A stretch of DNA of 64,000 bases from Acutalibacteraceae bacterium. Lineage in GTDB: Bacteria; Bacillota; Clostridia; Oscillospirales; Acutalibacteraceae. Shown here piece by piece: positions 4,355 to 61,649 of this stretch. Each line of letters begins with the position of its first letter. Within the stretch, counting starts at the first letter, position 1. The stretch is taken from contig JAZUJJ010000105.1 of assembly GCA_045642725.1 (NCBI GenBank), positions 5,584-69,583 of the forward strand, written 5' to 3'. The translations under genes and the position numbers were made by a program. The notes beneath the pieces are model-generated. The model saw nothing but the letters and a program-made list of their open reading frames with translations, was not told where the DNA came from and ran no database searches.

Positions 4355-5167
4355 TTATTTTATAATTTCTCTTATTTCGAGCGTTTTTTTAACCACGGCG
4401 GAGAAGGCTTCGGGGGTCAGGGCCTGCTCCGGGTCACTTACGGAGCTGCCGGGGTTTGTGTGGACCTCAAGCATGATTCCGTCTGCTCCTGCCGCGGCGG
4501 CGGCAAAGGTCAGCGACGGAACTGCACAGGCTATGCCCGCCGCATGGCTCGGGTCGGCAATAACGGGCAGATGGGTTTTACTTTTAAGCAGTGATATTGC
4601 GCCTACATCGAGGGTGTTTCTCAGATCATCGCCGAAGGTGCGTATGCCCCTTTCGCAGAGTATGACTTTTTCGTTTCCGCCTGCAAGTATATATTCGGCC
4701 GAGAGCAGGAATTCTTCAAGAGTTGCGCCCATACCCCTTTTGAGCAATACGGGCTTGTCAATTCCGCCGAGCTCCTTGAGAAGCTCGTAATTCTGCATAT
4801 TTCTTGTTCCCACCTGAAGCATATCAATGCTTTCAAACAGCGGGAGCTGACGGGGGTCTGTGATTTCGGAAACTGTGGGCAGACCCGCTTCTTTTCCTGC
4901 GGCGGCAAGAATATCAAGCCCTTCCCTGCCCATTCCCTGGAAGGTGTACGGGGATGTACGTGGCTTAAAGGCACCTGCTCTGAGCATCCCTGCGCCTGCT
5001 TCTTTAACTTTTTTGGCTATTTCAACAGCTGTTTCGTATGATTCAACGGCACAGGGACCGGCGATAAACGAAAAGTTTCCGCCGCCTGCGGAGAAACTGC
5101 CGACGCTGATGACCGTATCTTCTTTTTTGTATTCACGGGAAACCCTGAAAATATCCGTGTTGTTCAT
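4355..5167 (-). CDS. aroF: 3-deoxy-7-phosphoheptulonate (DAHP) synthase, type I-beta, core barrel only
   Basis: IAGPCAVE, AFKPRTSPYTFQG, LLKRG, ILCERGIRT, ADPSH motifs. Confidence 0.92.
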   Translation of the reverse strand: MNNTDIFRVSREYKKEDTVISVGSFSAGGGNFSFIAGPCAVESYETAVEIAKKVKEAGAGMLRAGAFKPRTSPYTFQGMGREGLDILAAAGKEAGLPTVSEITDPRQLPLFESIDMLQVGTRNMQNYELLKELGGIDKPVLLKRGMGATLEEFLLSAEYILAGGNEKVILCERGIRTFGDDLRNTLDVGAISLLKSKTHLPVIADPSHAAGIACAVPSLTFAAAAAGADGIMLEVHTNPGSSVSDPEQALTPEAFSAVVKKTLEIREIIK

Positions 5168-51071: not shown

Positions 51072-51109
51072 TTTCTCACCTTTTCGTTTGTGAATGTTAT
51101 AAAATTAAA

Positions 51110-51180
51110 AGACGGCCTTAAAGAAAGGTGAATGCCCGTAATCCGGTTATGAGTACTCACCTGATAAAGACCGCCCGAAA
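51110..51180 (-). terminator. Long irregular hairpin after the ior/paa operon
   Basis: GACGGCCTT..AGGTGA/TCACCT..AAGACCGCC with a T-run on the minus strand. Confidence 0.45.
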
Positions 51181-51183
51181 AAA

Positions 51184-51573
51184 TTATTTGCCGATTATTT
51201 TTTCTATATCCTCATCGGTGCCTATACGGAAAACCATCTGAGCATTTCCGTTTACCTCACCGAAGATGGAATACATATATTCAATGCCGATGCCTGCCGC
51301 AGAGAGCTTTTTGAGAACCCCGTCAAGGCCTCCGACTTCGTTGGGAACATCTACCACCTGAACAGGAGTAACAGTAACGATAAAGCCCTCTTCGCTGAGC
51401 ACTCCGGCGGCTTTTCTCTCATCGTCAACAATGAGACGCAGAACACCGTAGTCCATGGTTTCGGCGATATTCAGCGCAATAAGGTTTATGCCGTTCTGAG
51501 CAAGAATGCCCGTGATTTCGCAGAGCATACCATTGCGGTTTTCAAGAAAAACGGATAACTGATTCTTTGTCAT
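51184..51573 (-). CDS. Tandem ACT-domain protein (PaaK-associated type)
   Basis: QLSVFLENRNG..INLIALNIAET..GVLRLIV; GGAGG RBS supports start 51573. Confidence 0.88.
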   Translation of the reverse strand: MTKNQLSVFLENRNGMLCEITGILAQNGINLIALNIAETMDYGVLRLIVDDERKAAGVLSEEGFIVTVTPVQVVDVPNEVGGLDGVLKKLSAAGIGIEYMYSIFGEVNGNAQMVFRIGTDEDIEKIIGK

Positions 51574-51586
51574 AATAACGGCCTCC

Positions 51587-52885
51587 TCAGATTTTTCTCT
51601 TGTCAATTACTCTTACGGATTTGCCTTCGCTTCTTTCGATGGTGCGCGGAGCCACGATACGGACCTTGGCGTGAATGCCGAGCATGGCTTTGAGTGCCAC
51701 AACAAGGGATTTTTCCATTTCCGTAATCTTACCGAGGTTATCGGAGAAGTTGCTCTCGGACATTTCAACCATGACTTCAATAGTATCGGAGTTGTTGACT
51801 CTGTCAACAACTATCTGATAGTTGGCGGGGTAACCCTGCTCAATGAGTACGGTTTCAATCTGTGACGGGAAGACATTGACACCCTTGACAATAAGCATAT
51901 CGTCACTGCGTCCTCTGGGCTTGCACATTTTGATGAATGTACGCCCGCAGGAGCATTTTTCTTCACTGAGCTCACATATATCCCTTGTTCTGTATCGGAG
52001 CAGAGGGAAAGCTTCCTTGTCAATGCAGGTGAAAACAAGCTCGCCTTCACTGCCTGCGGGAAGCACCTCTTCGGTTTCGGGGTCAATGATTTCGGCTATG
52101 AAATGGTCTTCGTTAATGTGCATTCCGTTCTGCTCACTGCATTCGAAAGCAACACCGGGGCCGCTGATTTCCGTAAGACCGTATATATCATAGGCCTTTA
52201 TGCCGAGCTTATCTTCAATGCTGTGACGCATTTCTTCGCTCCATGCCTCTGCACCGAAAATACCCGCTTTAAGCTTGATCTGGTCAAGCAGACCTCTTTC
52301 CTCAATGCTTTCCGCAAGGTATGCGGCATAGGAGGGGGTGCAGCAGAGAATTGTGGAATTGAGATCGGTCATGAACTGAAGCTGACGGTCGGTATTGCCG
52401 GAGGACATGGGCAGGGTAAGACAGCCTGCCTTATGGCTTCCGCCGTGGAAGCCCGCTCCGCCCGTGAAAAGGCCGTAGCCGTAGCACACCTGACAGACAT
52501 CATCCTTTGTGCCGCCTACGGCAACAATGGCTCTGGCACAGCAATCCTCCCAGAGGTCAACGTCATTCTGAGTGTAAAATGCAACAACTCTTTTTCCCGT
52601 TGTGCCGGATGTGGAATGGATTCTTACGCAGTTTTTGAGGTCTGTTCCGAGCAGGCCGTAAGGATAGGCATCTCTCAGGTCTGCTTTTGAAATGAACGGA
52701 AGCTTGTTAAGGTCATCAAGACTTTTGATGTCGTCGGGGGTGATGCCCTTTTCTTCCATTTTTTTACGGTAATAGGGAACATTATCCCAAACGTGCTTTA
52801 CCTGTTTGAGAAAGCGTTCGTTCTGAAGCTTTTTAATATCTTCACGGGAGGCGCACTCTATATCTTTCTGATAATAGTTTTCCAT
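51587..52885 (-). CDS. paaK: Phenylacetate-CoA ligase family
   Basis: IHSTSGTTGK, YDIYGLTE, LLRYRTRD, GRSDDMLIVKGVNVFPSQIE. Confidence 0.92.
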   Translation of the reverse strand: MENYYQKDIECASREDIKKLQNERFLKQVKHVWDNVPYYRKKMEEKGITPDDIKSLDDLNKLPFISKADLRDAYPYGLLGTDLKNCVRIHSTSGTTGKRVVAFYTQNDVDLWEDCCARAIVAVGGTKDDVCQVCYGYGLFTGGAGFHGGSHKAGCLTLPMSSGNTDRQLQFMTDLNSTILCCTPSYAAYLAESIEERGLLDQIKLKAGIFGAEAWSEEMRHSIEDKLGIKAYDIYGLTEISGPGVAFECSEQNGMHINEDHFIAEIIDPETEEVLPAGSEGELVFTCIDKEAFPLLRYRTRDICELSEEKCSCGRTFIKMCKPRGRSDDMLIVKGVNVFPSQIETVLIEQGYPANYQIVVDRVNNSDTIEVMVEMSESNFSDNLGKITEMEKSLVVALKAMLGIHAKVRIVAPRTIERSEGKSVRVIDKRKI

Positions 52886-52899
52886 AAAAATTACCTTCG

Positions 52900-53475
52900 T
52901 CAATCGGAATTTTTGCCGAGTGCAAATGCTTTTTTGTTGATTTCAAGGAATTTGGGAGGAACTGATTCTTCAATCGCCTTGAGCCAGTCCTCCTCGGTGA
53001 AATCAAAATATGCGGAAAGTCTGCCGAGCAGAACAAGGTTTACTGCTTTGGCTGAGCCTGCCTCAACGGCAAGTGAAAGAGCGTCAAGGCAATCTGCTTT
53101 TGCTCCGGCTTCGGCAATCTTTTTGTCAAGATTTTCGGGGTAAACGGCTGCACCCGTAATTACGGGCATGGGATTTGTTTGCTGTGTATTGGTGATTATA
53201 ATGCCGTCGGGGGCAAGGAATTCCATCCATCTGGCGGCTTCAAGGAGCTCAAAGGAGAGAATGATGTCTGCTTCGCCCTTGTCGATAATGGGTGAATAGA
53301 CCTTGTCGCCGTAGCGGACATAGGTAACAACGCTGCCGCCGCGCTGGCTCATACCGTGAACCTCGCTGACCTTTACATCATAACCTTTTGAAAGGAGAAT
53401 ACGGCCGAGAAGCTTACTTGCAAGGAGGGTGCCCTGACCGCCTACACCGACTATCATTATGTTTTTTGTTTTCAT
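52900..53475 (-). CDS. iorB: Indolepyruvate:ferredoxin oxidoreductase beta subunit
   Basis: GVGGQG, SEVHGMSQRGGSV. Confidence 0.93.
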   Translation of the reverse strand: MKTKNIMIVGVGGQGTLLASKLLGRILLSKGYDVKVSEVHGMSQRGGSVVTYVRYGDKVYSPIIDKGEADIILSFELLEAARWMEFLAPDGIIITNTQQTNPMPVITGAAVYPENLDKKIAEAGAKADCLDALSLAVEAGSAKAVNLVLLGRLSAYFDFTEEDWLKAIEESVPPKFLEINKKAFALGKNSD

Positions 53476-53487
53476 ATCGGTTCCTCC

Positions 53488-55218
53488 TTACTTACCAAGT
53501 GCATCTTTGGGGCAAAGCTGTGCGCAGACACCGCAGCCCGTACAGAGTGTTGAATCTATAACGGCTTTTCCGTCAACAATGCTGATGGCGGGGCAGCCGA
53601 TTCTCATGCAGGACTTACAGCCGATACATTTGTCGGCCTTTGCGGTGATGGGGCCGGGATGCTTGACATATTTAAGCAGAGCACAGGGCCTGCGGGAGAT
53701 TATGACAGAGGGCTCCTCTGCCGCAAGCTCTTCCTTGAGAGCCTTGTCGCATTCATCAAGATTGTACGGGTCAACAACTCTGACTCTTCTTATACCGACG
53801 GCATGGCAGAGTGCCTCAAGGTCAATCTTTGTGCAGGGGTCGCCCTTAAGATTGAAGCCTGTTGTGGGGTTCTGCTGATGACCCGTCATACCGGTAATGG
53901 AATTGTCAAGAATGATTACGGTGGAGTTTGATTCATTATATGCAATGTTTACAAGTCCGGTAATGCCCGAGTGCATAAAGGTGGAGTCACCGATAACGGC
54001 AACGCTCTTGCCTTCGTGCTCCTTGCCGGAGAGCTTGTTGAAGCCGTGAAGACCCGAAACGGAAGCACCCATGCAGATAACGCTGTCAACGGCGTTAAGG
54101 GGAGCGACCGCACCGAGGGTGTAACAGCCGATGTCACCGATAACATTGACTTTATTCTTTTTGAGAATATAGTACAGACCTCTGTGAGGACAGCCTGCGC
54201 ACATAACGGGAGGACGGTTGGGGATGATTTCCTCTGTTTTTACTCCGCATTTTGTTTCAATGCCGAGCTTTTCCGCAATGAGATTCTGGCTGAATTCACC
54301 GATACAGCCGAAGAGCTCTTTTCCGGTAACCTCAACGCCTATCTTTTTGCAGTGGGTTTCAATAACATCGTCAAGCTCTTCAACAACGATTACTTTGCCG
54401 ACTTTTCCGGCAAAGTCTTTGATTTTCTTAACCGGCAGGGGATTTATCATGCCGAGCTTAAGAACGGGATACTTATCACCGCAGACCTCTTTTACATACT
54501 GATATGAGGTGGATGAGGTGATGATGCCGAGAGAGCTGTCGCTTCCCTCTTCAACCCTGTTTATCTCTGCGGTTTCCGCATATTCGGTGAGGGCTTTTGT
54601 TCTCTCTTCAACAATGGGATGCCTTGCCTTGGCAAAGCCCGGCATCATAATGTATTTCGGGCCGTTCTTTTCATATTTCTTTATATCGGCTTCGATTCTG
54701 TTGGTGGTATCAACGATGCTCTGTGAATGAGCAACTCTCGTACACATTTTCATTATGACGGGAGCGTCGAATTTTTCGGAAAGCTCATAGGCAAGCTTTG
54801 CAAAAGCCTTTGCTTCGGCGGAATCGGAGGGCTCAAGCATAGGAAGCTTTGCGGCTATGGCATAGTGGCGGGAATCCTGCTCATTCTGTGAGGAATGCAT
54901 ACCGGGGTCGTCGGCAACGGCAATTATCATGCCTGCATTTACTCCGGTGTATGAGATTGTGAAAAGAGGGTCGGCGGCAACATTGAGGCCGACATGCTTC
55001 ATTCCGCAAAAGCTTCTGTGACCTGCAAGGGAGGCACCGAAAGCGGATTCCATGGCAACCTTTTCATTCGGTGCCCATTCGGCATAGATTTCGGGATATT
55101 TTGCCGCACACTCGGTTATTTCGGTACTGGGTGTTCCGGGATAGGATGAAACGAAAGCACAGCCGGCCTCAAAAAGACCTCTTGCAAAGGCTTCGTTTCC
55201 CAGCATAAGAGTTTTCAT
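53488..55218 (-). CDS. iorA: Indolepyruvate:ferredoxin oxidoreductase alpha subunit
   Basis: YPGTPSTE, MKHVGLNVAAD, CAGCPHR, GDIGCY, GDSTF, two C-terminal 4Fe-4S motifs. Confidence 0.95.
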   Translation of the reverse strand: MKTLMLGNEAFARGLFEAGCAFVSSYPGTPSTEITECAAKYPEIYAEWAPNEKVAMESAFGASLAGHRSFCGMKHVGLNVAADPLFTISYTGVNAGMIIAVADDPGMHSSQNEQDSRHYAIAAKLPMLEPSDSAEAKAFAKLAYELSEKFDAPVIMKMCTRVAHSQSIVDTTNRIEADIKKYEKNGPKYIMMPGFAKARHPIVEERTKALTEYAETAEINRVEEGSDSSLGIITSSTSYQYVKEVCGDKYPVLKLGMINPLPVKKIKDFAGKVGKVIVVEELDDVIETHCKKIGVEVTGKELFGCIGEFSQNLIAEKLGIETKCGVKTEEIIPNRPPVMCAGCPHRGLYYILKKNKVNVIGDIGCYTLGAVAPLNAVDSVICMGASVSGLHGFNKLSGKEHEGKSVAVIGDSTFMHSGITGLVNIAYNESNSTVIILDNSITGMTGHQQNPTTGFNLKGDPCTKIDLEALCHAVGIRRVRVVDPYNLDECDKALKEELAAEEPSVIISRRPCALLKYVKHPGPITAKADKCIGCKSCMRIGCPAISIVDGKAVIDSTLCTGCGVCAQLCPKDALGK

Positions 55219-55259
55219 TTGACAACACTTCTTCCTTTAGACATATCGGGTTCCGATTA

Positions 55260-56897
55260 TCAGCTCTTTATCTGTGCTTCAACAAGTCTGCCGTGGCAGT
55301 ATCTCTGACGAAGCACGGGGTTTTCGATTTTGCCGGTGGGATTTCTGGGAACATCGGCAAAAATAATCTTTCTTGGTCTCTTGTATCTGGGCAGCTCGGT
55401 GCAGAATTCATTGATTTCTTCTTCCGTGCACTCCATGCCTTCTTTGATTTCGATAATTGCGGTGGCAATTTCACCCAGACGCGGGTCGGGCATGCCGATA
55501 ACGGCAACATCCTTTATCTTGTCATTCTTGCGAAGGAAGGCTTCTATCTGAACGGGGTAAAGATTTTCGCCGCCGGAAATGATAACATCTTTCTTTCTGT
55601 CAACAAGTGTGATAAAGCCGTCCTCGTCGATTTCGGCCATATCTCCGGTAAAGAGCCAGCCGTCCTTGAGAATTTCTGCGGTGGCATCGGGATTCTTATA
55701 GTAACATTTCATTACGCCGGGGCCCTTGACTGCAAGCTCACCGACCTCGCCGACGGCAACTTCATCGCCCTCGTCGTTGATGACTTTGGTTTCCCAAAGG
55801 TAGCCAGCTTTGCCGATGGCACCGACCTTATGAACATTCTCAACACCGAGATGAACGCAGCCCGGCCCGAGAGATTCGCTGAGGCCGTAGTTTGTGTCAT
55901 ACTGATGGTTGGGGAAGTATTTGAGCCAGCGGTGAATGAGTGAGGGGGGAACGGGCTGAGCACCGATGTGAAGAAGTCTCCACTGCTCAAGCAGATAATG
56001 GTCCATATTTATTTTGCCCGATTCAATGGCGTCGAGCATATCCTGAGCCCAGGGAACGAGAAGCCAGACTATTGTGCATTTTTCTTCGGTTACGGCGCGG
56101 AGTATCCATTCGGGCTTGACACCTCTGAGCAGAACGGCCTTGCTGCCTGAGAAAAGTGAACCGAACCAGTGCATTTTTGCACCTGTATGGTAAAGGGGAG
56201 GAATGCAGAGGAAAACATCGTCACGGGTCTGACCGTGGTGAGCCTGCTCGGTTACGCAGGAGCAGTAAAGACCCTTGTGGTCATGAAGAATGGCCTTGGG
56301 GAAGCCTGTTGTGCCGGATGAAAAATAAATGGCCGCATAGTCATCCTCTCTGATGTCAACGGGAGGACAGAGTGAGGAGCAGAATCTCATGAGAGACCAG
56401 CAGTCCTCGGTGTATTCGGGGCCGTTTTTGCCGACGAAGAACATGGTTTTGATTTTCGGAACATCGTTGTGAATGGCATCCATTCTTGTGACGAATTCGG
56501 GCCCGAAAAGAAGAATTTCAATATCGGCAAGATCAACGCAGTATTGAATTTCATCTGCGGAATATCTGAAATTGAGAGGCACGGCAATACAGCCGGATTT
56601 GAGAATACCGAAATAGAGCGGAAGCCACTCAATGCAGTTCATAAGGAGTATGCCGACTTTTGTTCCCTTTTTGACACCTCTGCTCAGAAGCAGATTTGCA
56701 AAGCGGTTTGCTTTTCTGTCAAAGCTTGACCAGGAAAGGTCTCTGCGGTAGGGAGCGTCGGGATTTGTGATTCCGATAAGGCTTGCTTCACGCCAGGTCG
56801 TGGCCTTATCTCTTTCGTCTGAGGGATTTATCTCAACCAGTGCGATGTCATCCCTGTAAAGGCGTGCGTTTCTTTCGAGCAGTTCTGTAATTAACAT
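55260..56897 (-). CDS. Acyl/aryl-CoA ligase (AMP-binding, class I adenylating enzyme)
   Basis: YFSSGTTGFPK, YGLSE, FTGD, DRKKDVIISGGEN, PTGK. Confidence 0.9.
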   Translation of the reverse strand: MLITELLERNARLYRDDIALVEINPSDERDKATTWREASLIGITNPDAPYRRDLSWSSFDRKANRFANLLLSRGVKKGTKVGILLMNCIEWLPLYFGILKSGCIAVPLNFRYSADEIQYCVDLADIEILLFGPEFVTRMDAIHNDVPKIKTMFFVGKNGPEYTEDCWSLMRFCSSLCPPVDIREDDYAAIYFSSGTTGFPKAILHDHKGLYCSCVTEQAHHGQTRDDVFLCIPPLYHTGAKMHWFGSLFSGSKAVLLRGVKPEWILRAVTEEKCTIVWLLVPWAQDMLDAIESGKINMDHYLLEQWRLLHIGAQPVPPSLIHRWLKYFPNHQYDTNYGLSESLGPGCVHLGVENVHKVGAIGKAGYLWETKVINDEGDEVAVGEVGELAVKGPGVMKCYYKNPDATAEILKDGWLFTGDMAEIDEDGFITLVDRKKDVIISGGENLYPVQIEAFLRKNDKIKDVAVIGMPDPRLGEIATAIIEIKEGMECTEEEINEFCTELPRYKRPRKIIFADVPRNPTGKIENPVLRQRYCHGRLVEAQIKS

Positions 56898-56920
56898 GAT
56901 TTCCTCCTTGCTTCCGGGAA

Positions 56921-57200
56921 ATAAAAAAGCCCCCGGAGCTTTGATAATAGCTCTGAGGACGAGTCAAGCCCGTGGTACCACCTCAATTTACCGCTGAAAA
57001 CGGCCTCGATGAGCAACTGACATTGCTCTCACGCTGTAACGGGCGCCCCCGTCACCGCCTACTTTTCGTCAGATTTTTCAATCTCCGTGTTCGGGGTGCG
57101 GCTCGGAAAGGTATTCGGTTATCCTGCTTCTGCCTGCTCGCACCGGCCGCCGGCTCTCTGAAGAAGCAAATGATGACTTACTGTTTTTCGTCAAAGCCTT
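56921..57200 (-). promoter_or_regulatory. T-box riboswitch, Tyr (UAC) specifier
   Basis: Minus strand: AGTA, AGAGA, GGTG boxes; GAA-TAC (57116-57111); AATTGAGGTGGTACCACG antiterminator; overlapping terminator followed by TTTTTT. Confidence 0.9.
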
Positions 57201-57212
57201 TTTATTAGTGGT

Positions 57213-57241
57213 ATTCTATCACCGTAAAATCCGTTTGTCAA
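57213..57241 (-). promoter_or_regulatory. Sigma-A promoter upstream of the T-box
   Basis: TTGACA-17-TAGAAT with extended TG. Confidence 0.85.
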
Positions 57242-57345: not shown

Positions 57346-59385
57346 GTGAAACGAAAGAAGTGGATCGTCTCGAAGGGCAACAAGGAGCTGGCTTCTCTTG
57401 CTTCTCAGGAGCTCGGTATAGACCCCCTTGCGGCTTTGCTCGTTACCTCGCGTGGGTTTGAAGACACAGAGTCGCTGGCAGAGTTTTTTGATACCGATGC
57501 ACCTTTGTCTCTTGACCCGTTTTCAATAAAAGATATGGATGCTGCCGCCGCGCGTATAAACGCCGCTGTTGACGGCTTTGAAATGATATGCGTTTTCGGT
57601 GATTATGACTGTGACGGTGTAACGGCAACGGCTCTTACCTACGCTTATCTCGAAAGCCGCGGTGCCAATGTCATAAGATATATTCCCGACAGAATTTCAG
57701 AGGGCTACGGTCTCAACAAAAATGCCGTTAAAGAGCTTCACGATATGGGCGTTAAGCTCATTGTTACCGTTGATAACGGAGTTTCCGCCATTGAAGAGGT
57801 TGAGTATGCCTATTCTCTCGGTATGCAGGTCGTTGTTACCGACCACCATAAGGCGGGCGATGTGCTTCCTGTCTGCGAAGCTGTTGTTGACCCTCACAGA
57901 AGTGACTGCCCCAGCCCGTTCAAGGAGCTTGCGGGTGTCGGCGTTGCCTTCAAGCTTGTCTGTGCTCTTGAAGGCTGTGATGAAGATGAGCTTCTGGAGG
58001 AATACGGTGAATTTGTTGCTCTGGGTACCATCGGTGATGTGGTTTCTCTTACCGGGGAAAACAGAGTGCTTGTCAGCAGGGGAATAAGATATATAAACGA
58101 GCATCCCGGTATAGGCGTTGCCGCCCTCATAGAAGCATCGGGGCTTAAAGATAAAACCTTTACATCTTCAAGTGCCGCCTATTCACTTTGCCCGAGGATA
58201 AATGCCGCCGGCAGAATGGGCAGTGCCGACAAGGCTCTTGAACTTCTTCTCTGTGATGACCCGGATGAAGCCGGATATATCGCTTCGGAAATCAGCTCAA
58301 TGAATTCCGAGCGTCAGGGCACGGAAAATGAAATATACAAAAAAGCACTTGCAATCATACAGGATAACCCGGAAATCGGAAACGGAAAAATCATCGTTGT
58401 TGACGGTGAAGACTGGCATCAGGGCGTTGTGGGCATAGTTGCCGCAAAGCTTACGGAGCATTTCGGAAGACCTTCCGTCGTTATTTCCCGTTCCGGTGAT
58501 GATGCCAAGGGTTCCTGCCGCAGTATAGAAGGCTTCTCGATTTTCGATGCCATTGAAGCGGTTTCCGATTGCCTGACTCATTACGGCGGCCACACCCTGG
58601 CCGCAGGTGTGGGTATGAAGCCGGAGATGATACCGGAATTCAGAAGAAGAATAAACGAATATGCCGCCGATAAAGAGGTTCCCTTTGCGGTGCAGAGAGT
58701 TGACTGCAGAATACAGCCCTCATCCGTCAGCCTCAGCCTTCTGCCGGGCGTGTCGGTTCTCGAGCCCTACGGCGCGGGTAATCCTCAGCCCTGCTTCGGG
58801 CTTTTCGGGGTGACGATAGAAGATATTTCCGGTCTTTCCGAAGGAAAGCATACAAGAATTCTTGTTTCAAAGAACGGAGTCAAGACAAGCACCGTGTTTT
58901 TCGGTATGCCCGACAAGCGTTTTCCCTTTGAAAAAGGTGATGTTGTTGACCTTGCCGTAAACCTTGAAAAGAATGTTTACAACGGTGACGAAAGAGTTTC
59001 GGCGGTGGTCAGAGGTGTAAGACCTTCAGTTACAGACGAAGAAAAGGTTCTTTCCGCCATTTCTCTTTACGATAAATTCACAAGAAACGAAAAGCTTACT
59101 CAGAGTCAGGCCGCTGCACTTACACCGGACAGAAGCACTCAGGTGGATGTATTCAGAGCCATTAAAGCAAAGCCTCTGAAGGACGGTTACTGTGAGCAGC
59201 TTTGCGTAAGACTGGGTGATGACGGCACAAAGCTTGCCGCATATATGGTTACGGTAAACATGATGACGGAAATGGGCGTGCTTGCCGTTGATGAGGATAA
59301 CAGAATATATGCTCCGGAAAGTCAGGGTAAGGTCAACCTTGAGGATTCCTCCGCAATGAAAAAATTACGCTGTTTGCAGGTGTGA
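57346..59385 (+). CDS. recJ: ssDNA exonuclease RecJ
   Basis: FGDYDCDG, TVDNG, TDHH, GTIGD, PRINAAGR, GGHTLAAG. Confidence 0.96.
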   Translation: MKRKKWIVSKGNKELASLASQELGIDPLAALLVTSRGFEDTESLAEFFDTDAPLSLDPFSIKDMDAAAARINAAVDGFEMICVFGDYDCDGVTATALTYAYLESRGANVIRYIPDRISEGYGLNKNAVKELHDMGVKLIVTVDNGVSAIEEVEYAYSLGMQVVVTDHHKAGDVLPVCEAVVDPHRSDCPSPFKELAGVGVAFKLVCALEGCDEDELLEEYGEFVALGTIGDVVSLTGENRVLVSRGIRYINEHPGIGVAALIEASGLKDKTFTSSSAAYSLCPRINAAGRMGSADKALELLLCDDPDEAGYIASEISSMNSERQGTENEIYKKALAIIQDNPEIGNGKIIVVDGEDWHQGVVGIVAAKLTEHFGRPSVVISRSGDDAKGSCRSIEGFSIFDAIEAVSDCLTHYGGHTLAAGVGMKPEMIPEFRRRINEYAADKEVPFAVQRVDCRIQPSSVSLSLLPGVSVLEPYGAGNPQPCFGLFGVTIEDISGLSEGKHTRILVSKNGVKTSTVFFGMPDKRFPFEKGDVVDLAVNLEKNVYNGDERVSAVVRGVRPSVTDEEKVLSAISLYDKFTRNEKLTQSQAAALTPDRSTQVDVFRAIKAKPLKDGYCEQLCVRLGDDGTKLAAYMVTVNMMTEMGVLAVDEDNRIYAPESQGKVNLEDSSAMKKLRCLQV

Positions 59386-61649
59386 AAATGAATAAATTCA
59401 GCGAAACGGATACCGAAAGCTTTTCAACCCCCGAAGAAGGAATTGAAAAACTGCTTGCCATGGCGGCGGAAACCTTTTCCGCCGAAGAGCTTGAAAAAAT
59501 AAAAAAGGCTTATGATGTTGCTTCTGCAGCCCACGGAAATCAGCTCAGACTTTCCGGAGAGCCTTATATAATTCATCCGCTGAATGTTGCGATGATAACC
59601 GCAAGGCTGGGTATGGACCCGGCCTCGGTCGTTGCGGCTCTTCTTCACGATACCGTGGAGGATACGGGCATGACCGTGGAGGAAATAAAAGAAGGCTTCG
59701 GCGAAACGGTTGCGGAGCTTGTGGACGGCTTGACGAAAATCCGTCAGGTTCCCACCAAAACCGAGGAAAGAAAAGACGACAGTATTTTTATTGACCCCAC
59801 AAGCACAAAGCAGCAGCAACAGGCGGAAACCATCCGCAAAATGCTGCTTGCAATGTCGAAGGATATAAGAGTTATCATTGTCAAGCTTGCGGACAGGCTT
59901 CACAATATGAGAACTCTTGAATTCAAGCGTGAACAGCGCAGACGCGAAATTGCTCTTGAAACCATTGAAATTTATGCCCCCATAGCTCACCGTCTCGGTA
60001 TCAGACCCATAAAAGAGGAGCTGGAGGACCTTTCGATAAGCTATCTTGACCCCGTTGCTTATCAGGATATTGCCGATTCCCTCGAAAAGCAGGGAAAGGC
60101 AAGGCAAGAATTTCTTGATAATATCAAAGAGCGTATTTCCGAAAGAGCCAAAGAAATGGTTCCCGATGCGCAGGTCAGCGCAAGAATAAAATCAGTTCAC
60201 GGCATATACAGAAAGATGTATATGCAGAATAAGAATTTTGATGAAATTTACGATATTTACGCCGTAAGAATAATTGTTGACACGGTTATTGACTGCTACA
60301 ACTGTCTTGGTATAATCCACGATATGTTCAAGCCCATTCCGGGCAGATTCAAGGATTATATTTCAAACCCCAAGGCCAATATGTATCAGTCACTTCACAC
60401 CACCGTTCTCGGCAAAGAGGGTATTCCCTTTGAAGTTCAGATACGAACCTGGGATATGCACCGCACCGCCGAATACGGTGTTGCCGCTCACTGGAAATAC
60501 AAGCTGGGTATGGGCAGCAAGTCCGACCCCGGTGACCAGCATCTTGCCTGGGTGCGCCAGCTTCTTGAAACCCAGAAGGAAAACGAAGGCGTTGAGGACA
60601 TAGTCACCACCATAAAGAGTGACCTTGTGCCCGAGGAGGTTTTTGTTTTCACTCCGAGAGGCGATGTATTCAATCTTCCCAGCGGTTCTACGGTCATTGA
60701 CTTTGCTTACGCCATTCATTCAGCCGTCGGCAATAAGATGATAGGCGCAAAGGTTGACGGGCGAATCGTTCCCATAGACTATGTTGTAAAAACGGGCGAA
60801 ATCATAGAAATACTCATTTCCTCTCAGCAGGGCAAGGGTCCGAGCCGTGACTGGCTGAAGATAGTCAAGACAAGTCAGGCAAGAAGCAAAATCAGACAGT
60901 GGTACAAGAAAGAGCGCAGAGAGGAAAACATTGCCGAGGGCAAGGGCGAGCTTGAAAGAGAATTCAAGAGAAACTTCATCCGCCTTACGGATGAAGAGTA
61001 CGAGCCCTTCGTTATGAAAATGGCTGAGCGTCAGCATTGCAAAAATATTGAGGAATTTTATGCGGCCATCGGTTACGGCGGAATTTCTCTGTCGAAGCTC
61101 ATGCCGAGGGCCAAGGATGATTATCTTAAGCTCACGAAGCTCAATGAACCTGCTCCCGTAAAAACCGTTCCCGTCAAGAAAAAGACAAAATCCAACGACG
61201 GTGTTATCGTTGAAGGTATCGACAACTGCCTTATCAAGTTTTCACGATGCTGCAATCCTCTGCCGGGTGATGAAATCATCGGATTTATCACAAGAGGTCA
61301 CGGCGTTTCGGTTCACACGAAAAAATGTCCGAATGTGCCTGATGATATTTCATCCTGCGACGAGCCTGAAAGATGGGTCGCCGCTTACTGGGACACAAAT
61401 ATCCGTGAGGAATTCAAATGTACACTTCAGCTGTACTGTCTTAACCGCATAGGACTGCTTGCCGATGTTTCGGGCCTTCTTGCAAACCTTCACATAAATA
61501 TTACCGAGATAAATTCAAGAAGCATGAAGGACGGCAGAACTACGATTTTTGTTACCGTTTGTGTAAACGGTGTTGAGCATCTCAACGGGCTTACCGCAAG
61601 ACTTGAAAAGATTGACGGCGTTCTCAGCATAGAACGCTCCGGAATATAA
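59382..61649 (+). CDS. relA: Bifunctional (p)ppGpp synthetase/hydrolase (RelA/SpoT family)
   Basis: GEPYIIHP, LLHDTVED, KLADRLHNMRTL, YQSLHT, EVQIRT, TGS and ACT domains. Confidence 0.97.
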   Translation: MKMNKFSETDTESFSTPEEGIEKLLAMAAETFSAEELEKIKKAYDVASAAHGNQLRLSGEPYIIHPLNVAMITARLGMDPASVVAALLHDTVEDTGMTVEEIKEGFGETVAELVDGLTKIRQVPTKTEERKDDSIFIDPTSTKQQQQAETIRKMLLAMSKDIRVIIVKLADRLHNMRTLEFKREQRRREIALETIEIYAPIAHRLGIRPIKEELEDLSISYLDPVAYQDIADSLEKQGKARQEFLDNIKERISERAKEMVPDAQVSARIKSVHGIYRKMYMQNKNFDEIYDIYAVRIIVDTVIDCYNCLGIIHDMFKPIPGRFKDYISNPKANMYQSLHTTVLGKEGIPFEVQIRTWDMHRTAEYGVAAHWKYKLGMGSKSDPGDQHLAWVRQLLETQKENEGVEDIVTTIKSDLVPEEVFVFTPRGDVFNLPSGSTVIDFAYAIHSAVGNKMIGAKVDGRIVPIDYVVKTGEIIEILISSQQGKGPSRDWLKIVKTSQARSKIRQWYKKERREENIAEGKGELEREFKRNFIRLTDEEYEPFVMKMAERQHCKNIEEFYAAIGYGGISLSKLMPRAKDDYLKLTKLNEPAPVKTVPVKKKTKSNDGVIVEGIDNCLIKFSRCCNPLPGDEIIGFITRGHGVSVHTKKCPNVPDDISSCDEPERWVAAYWDTNIREEFKCTLQLYCLNRIGLLADVSGLLANLHINITEINSRSMKDGRTTIFVTVCVNGVEHLNGLTARLEKIDGVLSIERSGI

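Follow-up and report, generated by a model that had tools for sequence, protein, structure and literature searches.

The founding tyrosine (Tyr) T-box is reportedly the Bacillus subtilis tyrS leader with its UAC specifier, described by Grundy and Henkin. Rumen bacteria are said to carry out reductive carboxylation of phenylacetate and related acids, according to the isotope labelling of Allison and co-workers in the 1960s, which was done without genes or regulation, and Methanococcus maripaludis reportedly uses aryl acids in a manner that depends on an indolepyruvate:ferredoxin oxidoreductase (IOR), a result attributed to Porat et al. in 2004. We know of no control of the archaeal IOR route by a tRNA-sensing riboswitch. 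The rumen reaction on phenylacetate is mentioned in PMC7356843, and the IOR of Methanobacterium thermoautotrophicum was proposed to run in reverse (cited in PMC13285125). Here we analyzed a 64-kb stretch of DNA (the window) from the metagenome-assembled genome (MAG) of an Acutalibacteraceae bacterium of the herbivore gut (2.65 Mb, 124 contigs, 97.5% complete). In this window a T-box leader with a Tyr specifier precedes a five-gene operon encoding a FadD-like ligase, IorA, IorB, a PaaK-like ligase and an ACT protein, and this operon probably runs biosynthetically, from aryl acid to amino acid, under the Tyr T-box.

Two bacterial systems were also compared. In Bacteroides an IOR adjoins an AMP-forming arylacetate-coenzyme A (CoA) ligase of the PaaK type (PDB 4r1l), and an anabolic role was suggested in 2026 on thermodynamic grounds only (PMC13285125). 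Our locus has the same ior-paaK neighbourhood and is open to the same thermodynamic argument, and its PaaK-like ligase is most similar to the Bacteroides enzyme (4e-124; phenylacetate-CoA ligase 2y27 from Burkholderia, 2e-119), whereas the FadD-like ligase, the ACT protein and starvation-sensing control are added here. To our knowledge, T-boxes are absent from Bacteroidota. The HpdDEFG-HpdJ-HpdK cluster of Clostridium scatologenes is an oxidative Tyr fermentation cluster (PMC13285125). Both this cluster and, by prediction, the operon studied here interconvert 4-hydroxyphenylpyruvate and 4-hydroxyphenylacetate via a CoA thioester with an enzyme of the PFOR family. However, the Hpd oxidoreductase is VOR-like with four subunits, is associated with a phosphotransacylase and a kinase for ATP gain and is induced by growth on Tyr, while a two-subunit IOR with ATP-consuming ligases is found here and induction is predicted on Tyr shortage. 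The archaeal aryl-acid route shares the IorAB family and the proposed chemistry (aryl-acetyl-CoA, CO2 and reduced ferredoxin to arylpyruvate and then to the amino acid), but in this member of the Clostridia two dedicated AMP-forming ligases and an ACT protein are placed in one operon behind a tRNA-sensing riboswitch. The rumen labelling work concerned the same type of habitat and the same route, from fermentation acid and CO2 to amino acid, for which candidate genes and a control logic are now available.

The whole window was scanned against Rfam with cmscan, and the only family above threshold was the T-box leader RF00230 at 56952-57203 (-), matched with 111.3 bits (gathering score 93 bits, E 9.5e-24) over model positions 1-219 and not truncated. 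A sigma-70-type promoter, TTGACA-17-TAGAAT with a TG extension (11/12 matches), is located at 57213-57241 (-). As read from the sequence, Stem I contains a kink-turn (K-turn), an AGUA/GAA specifier loop, an AGAGA box and a GGUGCGA distal loop, and is followed on its 3' side by Stem II, Stem IIA/B (CCGUUA), Stem III and an antiterminator with the T-box sequence AAAUUGAGGUGGUACCACG. The cmscan alignment and the leader geometry both place the specifier UAC at 57111-57113 (-), in the loop GAA-UAC-C, next to a helix in which UUUC is paired to GAAA. According to cmscan and the sequence, the T-box bulge has its UGGU at 56977-56980 (-), where the ACCA-3' terminus of an A73 tRNA would pair. Folding and sequence also indicated a leader terminator at 56923-56960 (-), composed of a GUCCUCAGAGCU/AGCUCCGGGGGC hairpin (56960-56929) and U6. 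The terminator and antiterminator folds are mutually exclusive, since a CCUC serves as the 5' strand of the former and also as the 3' strand of the latter. A ribosome-binding site (AGGAGG) is present 5' of the ATG at 56897.

An earlier note on this DNA had described a complete T-box with UAC after GAA and a UGGU bulge. All of this was recovered: the full-length match above threshold is accompanied by promoter, terminator and ribosome-binding site, with UAC at 57113-57111 and UGGU at 56980-56977. We consider it likely, judging from these elements, that the leader is a class-I transcriptional T-box riboswitch specific for tRNA-Tyr which gates the five-gene operon. Its architecture is that of B. 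subtilis tyrS and of RF00230 (Stem I with K-turn, specifier loop, AGAGA and distal loop, Stem II/IIA-B/III, UGGN bulge, competing terminator), and the UAC specifier is also that of tyrS, as is the UGGU, for which A73 is the presumed partner here. In contrast to tyrS, the cargo here comprises two acid-CoA ligases and a 2-oxoacid:ferredoxin oxidoreductase, not an aminoacyl-tRNA synthetase, de novo biosynthesis or a transporter, and a C follows the specifier. As an RNA, the leader is a conventional T-box; what the literature searched does not contain is a T-box in front of ior, paaK and the FadD-like ligase.

The codon read by the leader was compared with those of the T-boxes in the same genome. 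All ten T-boxes of the genome were extracted, and all ten fit the pattern [NNN][N][4-bp helix][N]GAG. This geometry yields the expected codons for pheS (UUC), thrS (ACC), alaS (GCC), valS (GUA), cysE (UGC), trpB (UGG) and a leuA-like gene (CUC), and the same register in the ior leader, GAA-UAC-C-UUUC-C-GAGC, gives UAC. The UAC was also aligned to the specifier columns of the Rfam model, and the specifier rule of TBDB prioritises the same position (PMC7778990). In this genome UGGU goes with A73 or G73 tRNAs and UGGA with U73 tRNAs: tRNA-Thr(GGU) and tRNA-Cys have U73 and the Thr and Cys T-boxes read UGGA, while A73 is present in the tRNAs for Phe, Val, Ala and Leu, and UGGU in the corresponding T-boxes. 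Since UGGN follows the tRNA discriminator, UGGU together with UAC fits tRNA-Tyr and excludes Thr. An ACC (Thr) specifier in the +1 frame was tried and rejected: it would leave a closing helix of 3 bp, and the thrS T-box itself combines ACC-A with UGGA for a U73 tRNA, while the ior leader has UGGU. The Tyr frame therefore holds by the cmscan columns, the geometry of the ten T-boxes and the discriminator logic.

The five genes are all on the (-) strand, with gaps of at most 41 nt or overlapping, and domain and NCBIfam searches confirmed the order ligase-iorA-iorB-paaK-ACT given by the earlier note, whose limits for the locus (51184-57241) agree exactly with the stop codon of the ACT gene and the -35 box. 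The first gene (55260-56897) encodes an AMP-forming acyl/aryl-CoA ligase of 545 aa with AMP-binding and AMP-binding_C domains. It scored 397.7 bits with NF004837, a FadD-like subfamily of long-chain fatty-acid-CoA ligases, below the cut-off of 476, and is established only as a member of the AMP-binding superfamily; among solved structures it comes nearest to FadD13, feruloyl-CoA synthetase and 4-coumarate ligases (4CL). IorA, the alpha subunit of indolepyruvate (arylpyruvate):ferredoxin oxidoreductase (53488-55218; TIGR03336, 693.8 bits, cut-off 650.9), contains TPP, POR_N and Fer4 domains with 2x[4Fe-4S], and IorB, the beta subunit (52900-53475; NF005325, 277.1 bits, cut-off 230), likewise exceeds its NCBIfam equivalog cut-off. 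The 438-aa AMP-forming aryl-acetate-CoA ligase (51587-52903) scored 502 bits with TIGR02155, which is below the equivalog cut-off of 646.3, and is therefore named PaaK-like and not PaaK. The last gene (51184-51606) encodes a stand-alone ACT-pair protein of 140 aa (ACT_8 1.1e-22; PDB 2f06 2.6e-24), presumed to be a small-molecule (amino-acid) sensor. Downstream, an intrinsic terminator at 51100-51176 (-), formed by a long hairpin and UUUUAAUUUU, closes the operon (-29.9 kcal/mol, z = -3.39; 0 of 200 shuffles folded as well). The iorA, iorB and paaK genes are each single-copy in this genome. Near-identical fragments of paaK (51824-52036) and iorA (54407-54647) occur as short assembled contigs in one horse-gut metatranscriptome; they are weak evidence of transcription in vivo and are silent on regulation, that is, on termination versus read-through.

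The gene set for reductive carboxylation of aryl acids is present in the genome, namely the activating ligases, IorAB and aminotransferases; six class I/II aminotransferase genes located elsewhere are candidates for the last step. The sequence shows that the terminator at 56960-56923 forms unless the leader is stabilised, and that the antiterminator requires UGGU to pair with the unoccupied ACCA terminus of a tRNA that reads UAC. In the proposed mechanism, Tyr shortage would leave uncharged tRNA-Tyr to stabilise the antiterminator, and the operon would be transcribed. The PaaK-like and FadD-like ligases would then activate aryl-acetic acids of the gut, such as 4-hydroxyphenylacetate and phenylacetate, to CoA thioesters, and IorAB, running in reverse with reduced ferredoxin and CO2, would convert these to 4-hydroxyphenylpyruvate or phenylpyruvate, from which one of the six aminotransferases would form Tyr and also phenylalanine (Phe). 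The ACT protein would probably provide end-product feedback. We infer 4-hydroxyphenylacetate as the specific substrate, the fixation of CO2 and the direction of flux.

T-box regulons comprise aminoacyl-tRNA synthetase, biosynthesis and uptake genes (PMC2494555; PMC7778990). The AMP-forming type of ligase favours thioester synthesis, an argument made for Bacteroides, and the characterised oxidative aryl routes use Pta and a kinase or ADP-forming ligases, by which ATP is harvested (PMC13285125). An anabolic direction is suggested by the supply role of T-box regulons, by the AMP-forming ligases and by earlier cases of the reverse reaction in archaea and rumen bacteria. A degradative role is unlikely, since degrading aromatic keto acids while tRNA-Tyr is uncharged would worsen the shortage. 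The biosynthetic reading put forward in the earlier note is thus supported as the best one, by relatives with UAC or UUC T-boxes, the AMP-forming ligases, the conserved ACT protein and the lack of detectable tyrA and pheA.

An IorA search of GTDB species genomes gave 80 loci from 80 species, mostly MAGs of Acutalibacteraceae, Oscillospiraceae and Lachnospiraceae from herbivore, chicken and human guts. The order FadD-like ligase-iorA-iorB-paaK-ACT was widely kept among them, with the FadD-like ligase beside iorAB in more than 50 loci and the ACT gene 3' of paaK in most relatives. T-boxes were sought by an nhmmer T-box profile, a regular expression and Rfam; a strict expression for the T-box sequence overlooked several leaders, and the profile and Rfam were used in its place. 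A T-box was found at this place in about 23 of the 80 loci, and 10 of 11 loci submitted to Rfam exceeded the gathering threshold. Two cultured relatives with the operon, Pseudoflavonifractor capillosus ATCC 29799 (L028) and Flavonifractor sp. An100 (L052), gave no T-box in these searches. Only two specifiers occurred among these ~23 ior T-boxes, UAC in 12 (this window, L011, L012, L020, L022a, L023a, L025, L032, L035, L041, L044 and L063) and UUC in 11 (L019, L022b, L023b, L042, L047, L048, L050, L058, L070, L077 and L090). The specifier-loop geometry was the same in about 21 relatives, and in L011, the closest relative, it reads GAA-UAC-A in the same register with the canonical purine. The frame of the specifier is fixed because the helix 3' of the loop covaries (GAAA/UUUC, GAAG/CUUC, GGAG/CUCC, GGAA/UUCC and GAAC/GUUC). 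A shortened T-box-like leader was seen at L032:4190-4300, with a minimal Stem I (GUAGGGUCCGGAUACCCUUUUC, UAC retained) and an intact GGUGGUACCACG antiterminator and terminator; this leader was detected by neither Rfam nor nhmmer.

When the FadD-like ligases were placed in a phylogenetic tree, those behind Tyr and those behind Phe T-boxes were intermixed, with at least four switches. L019 (Phe) and L020 (Tyr) were sisters with 99% support, and L048 (Phe) and L035 (Tyr) fell within one clade of 98%. T-box specificity has been re-tuned repeatedly by a single A/U change (UAC/UUC). Separate substrate-specific clades of ligases behind Tyr and Phe T-boxes were considered and rejected on the same intermixing. 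In the Pseudoflavonifractor-like L022 and L023, two promoter and T-box units were found, a Tyr unit before the FadD-like ligase and a Phe unit before iorAB-paaK-ACT; their first T-boxes were below the Rfam threshold. These split units span L022:3632-5890 and L023:1930-5916, and the first unit of L023 also carries a membrane-protein-like gene of ~1.8 kb. All T-boxes immediately before iorA read UUC (L022b, L023b, L070, L077 and L090). The FadD-like ligase is a candidate 4-hydroxyphenylacetate-CoA ligase, and 4-hydroxyphenylacetate is a plausible substrate given the arrangement in L022 and L023. The operon probably supplies Phe in addition to Tyr, as suggested by the interchange of UAC and UUC, the PaaK-like second ligase and the lack of a detectable pheA.

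Genes for the de novo aromatic branches were searched with HMMs (hidden Markov models). Prephenate dehydrogenase (PDH_N, PF02153, tyrA) and prephenate dehydratase (PDT, PF00800, pheA) were not found in this genome by the HMM search, whereas all 14 control genomes and 26 of the 29 genomes from relatives yielded both. The idea that the specifier marks a lost de novo branch was rejected, as the 26 genomes with both PDH_N and PDT include those with either specifier or with no T-box. The closest relative has a cluster of CM-DHQS, chorismate synthase, shikimate dehydrogenase, shikimate kinase, dehydroquinase, EPSP synthase, tyrA and DAHP synthase. The same cluster occurs in this genome on an unbroken contig (C123:12305-7084), except that an unrelated secreted-protein gene follows EPSP synthase, so that synteny shows tyrA to have been lost. 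The pheA flanks of the closest relative have no syntenic counterpart here, the HMM search being the whole of the evidence for the loss of pheA. A DAHP synthase gene is located within the window, at 4355-5167. Since tyrA and pheA are not detectable, endogenous Tyr may come mainly or solely from the ior route in this genome. HMM searches of this genome also failed to find trpC (IGPS) and chorismate-binding enzymes (TrpE/PabB/MenF), so that, together with the lack of tyrA and pheA, chorismate and prephenate have no recognisable outlet. Missing contigs, non-orthologous enzymes or a salvage lifestyle may account for this.

Several observations weigh against a Tyr-controlled biosynthetic operon. Most relatives that bear the T-box retain tyrA and pheA, which indicates that the ior route is generally supplementary and not a replacement. 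In this genome the shikimate cluster and chorismate mutase are intact, and given this cluster, unknown enzymes of the Phe/Tyr branch or contigs missing from the bin are possible. The IOR reaction is reversible, and PMC13285125 cites a report that the Bacteroides IOR homologue forms phenylacetate from Phe in vivo. Both ligases score below their NCBIfam cut-offs and their substrates are putative, and the operon contains no transporter or aminotransferase gene; flux and regulation are both predictions. With ARAGORN at default settings, tRNA-Tyr, tRNA-Ile and tRNA-Asn genes were not found in the MAG, and a relaxed run gave only doubtful candidates whose anticodons were unusual, Tyr-ATA and Asn-ATT among them; missing tRNA genes of this kind are typical of bins lacking rRNA-operon regions. 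The A73 discriminator is that of bacterial tRNA-Tyr in general, the MAG having no tRNA-Tyr gene. Finally, the base 3' of UAC is C, here and in most relatives, where a purine is usual. The alaS T-box of this genome (C49:61852-62053, L007) also has C and not a purine after its GCC specifier, so a non-purine appears to be tolerated in this lineage.

The unusual C and the lack of a tRNA-Tyr gene for a pairing check would fit a leader that is decaying or mis-read, in which case it would not be Tyr-specific or would no longer switch, and the operon would be constitutive or under a DNA-binding protein at the promoter. In many relatives the T-box has been lost and what remains is a conserved promoter motif with a short hairpin leader, and the truncated T-box of L032 goes unrecognised by Rfam. 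We regard decay as extremely improbable, as the leader has all conserved elements and an above-threshold match that spans the whole model, its terminator and antiterminator exclude each other, the discriminator logic is consistent genome-wide and UAC-A occupies this register in the closest relative. An oxidative operon, from arylpyruvate through aryl-acetyl-CoA to aryl acetate, with a T-box link to Tyr starvation that is incidental or otherwise purposed, would agree with the default catabolic annotation of ior and paaK and with the oxidative IOR family members of Pyrococcus and, reportedly, Bacteroides thetaiotaomicron (PMC13285125). Such an operon would deepen the Tyr shortage that induces it and would be out of place in T-box regulons of synthetase, biosynthesis and uptake genes (PMC2494555; PMC7778990). 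Moreover, AMP-forming ligases cannot conserve the thioester energy, for which known oxidative aryl routes rely on Pta and kinase or ADP-forming ligases, and UAC or UUC T-boxes recur at the operon in about 23 species. The oxidative direction is therefore very unlikely.

A biosynthetic operon might also sense Tyr only as a proxy. The operon would then be a general aromatic salvage system with Phe or all three aromatic amino acids as main products, and its FadD-like ligase would not be a 4-hydroxyphenylacetate ligase but might act on indole-3-acetate, phenylpropionate or another acid. The intermixed Tyr and Phe labels with their at least four switches, the consistent UUC directly before iorA and the failure to detect pheA as well as tyrA in this genome all agree with such a role, as does the acceptance of phenyl-, hydroxyphenyl- and indolepyruvate by IORs (PMC13285125). 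However, in L022 and L023 the FadD-like ligase is under a Tyr T-box and iorAB-paaK under a Phe T-box, which fits a Tyr-related substrate of this ligase, and no tryptophan (Trp; UGG) specifier occurs among the ~23 T-boxes at this locus. We consider the proxy explanation unlikely, and prefer biosynthesis of Tyr, and probably Phe, under the Tyr T-box.

Control regions of other types were observed in the relatives. In the T-box-less L013, L014, L015, L018, L026, L028, L054 and L055, the promoter upstream of the ligase is spanned by a conserved motif, TTGACTTTAGCnnTAAAAGTGnTAnAGT, whose core, CnCTTTAAAGnG, is nearly palindromic. The TTGACTTTAGCnnTAAAAGTGnTAnAGT motif also precedes some T-boxes (L022, L023, L025 and L063), which may point to an additional level of control exerted by a protein. 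Several T-box-less relatives have a short leader holding only a GUCCUCUGC...GCAGAGG hairpin and a U-run, which resembles a leftover T-box terminator. In L024:3378-6000, from an Acutalibacteraceae MAG, an isoleucine (Ile; AUC) T-box is found on a ligase of the HTH-cupin type directly upstream of iorAB-paaK-ACT. In the window itself, recJ (DHH/DHHA1/RecJ_OB) and a full-length relA/spoT-type (p)ppGpp synthetase-hydrolase gene (57346-61649, +) are divergent from the T-box promoter; the position of a stringent-response enzyme beside a starvation-sensing operon is probably a coincidence.

Other T-boxes of this genome are also found on possible salvage genes. A Trp (UGG) T-box at C110:7791-9925 (L008) precedes a stand-alone trpB (404 aa) and a gene for a 182-aa membrane protein, and no other trp genes occur near this trpB or are detectable in the genome. 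The Trp T-box on a lone trpB suggests salvage of indole to Trp. A valine (Val; GUA) T-box at C114:314-2723 (L005) and an Ile (AUC) T-box at C69:3-2390 (L010) each precede a paralogous HTH_3-cupin-AMP-binding ligase fusion of ~700 aa; both contigs break inside an identical C-terminal stretch, indicating that the assembly collapsed there. These ligases look like a branched-chain counterpart, in which isobutyrate and 2-methylbutyrate would be activated for the synthesis of Val and Ile.

In the literature searched, no publication combining 'T-box' and 'indolepyruvate' was found, and a mention in Vitreschak 2008 or in the TBDB/RegPrecise tables is possible; Wels 2008 does not mention ior/paaK-type genes. 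The ior and paaK genes of gut Firmicutes are routinely annotated and modelled as those of producers of phenylacetate, 4-hydroxyphenylacetate and indoleacetate, and these aryl acetates give rise to phenylacetylglutamine and p-cresol, two compounds associated with diseases of the heart, vessels and kidney. A T-box provides a built-in label of physiological direction, because its genes are on only when the cognate tRNA is uncharged. By this label, the ior and paaK genes described here should consume aryl acetates for amino-acid synthesis. If this is true, genes and a control logic would be assigned to the rumen reductive-carboxylation route known by labelling since the 1960s, metagenomic counts of ior and paaK would be read differently, and induction by Tyr or Phe limitation and flow of label from aryl acetate and CO2 into protein are predicted. 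The repeated one-base switch between UAC and UUC is also a compact natural case of T-box re-tuning between two amino acids of one pathway.

More tentatively, a hindgut lineage of Acutalibacteraceae might have given up its terminal aromatic branches (no detectable tyrA, pheA, trpC or trpE-type genes) and live by re-assimilating the end products of other microbes under tRNA control, with its T-boxes defining a genome-wide 'fermentation-acid re-assimilation regulon'. Aryl acetates and CO2 would be turned into Tyr and Phe through the Tyr T-box ior operon, indole into Trp through the Trp T-box trpB, and isobutyrate and 2-methylbutyrate into Val and Ile through the HTH-cupin ligases with Val and Ile T-boxes. 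Such bacteria would be net sinks, and not sources, of phenylacetate and 4-hydroxyphenylacetate.

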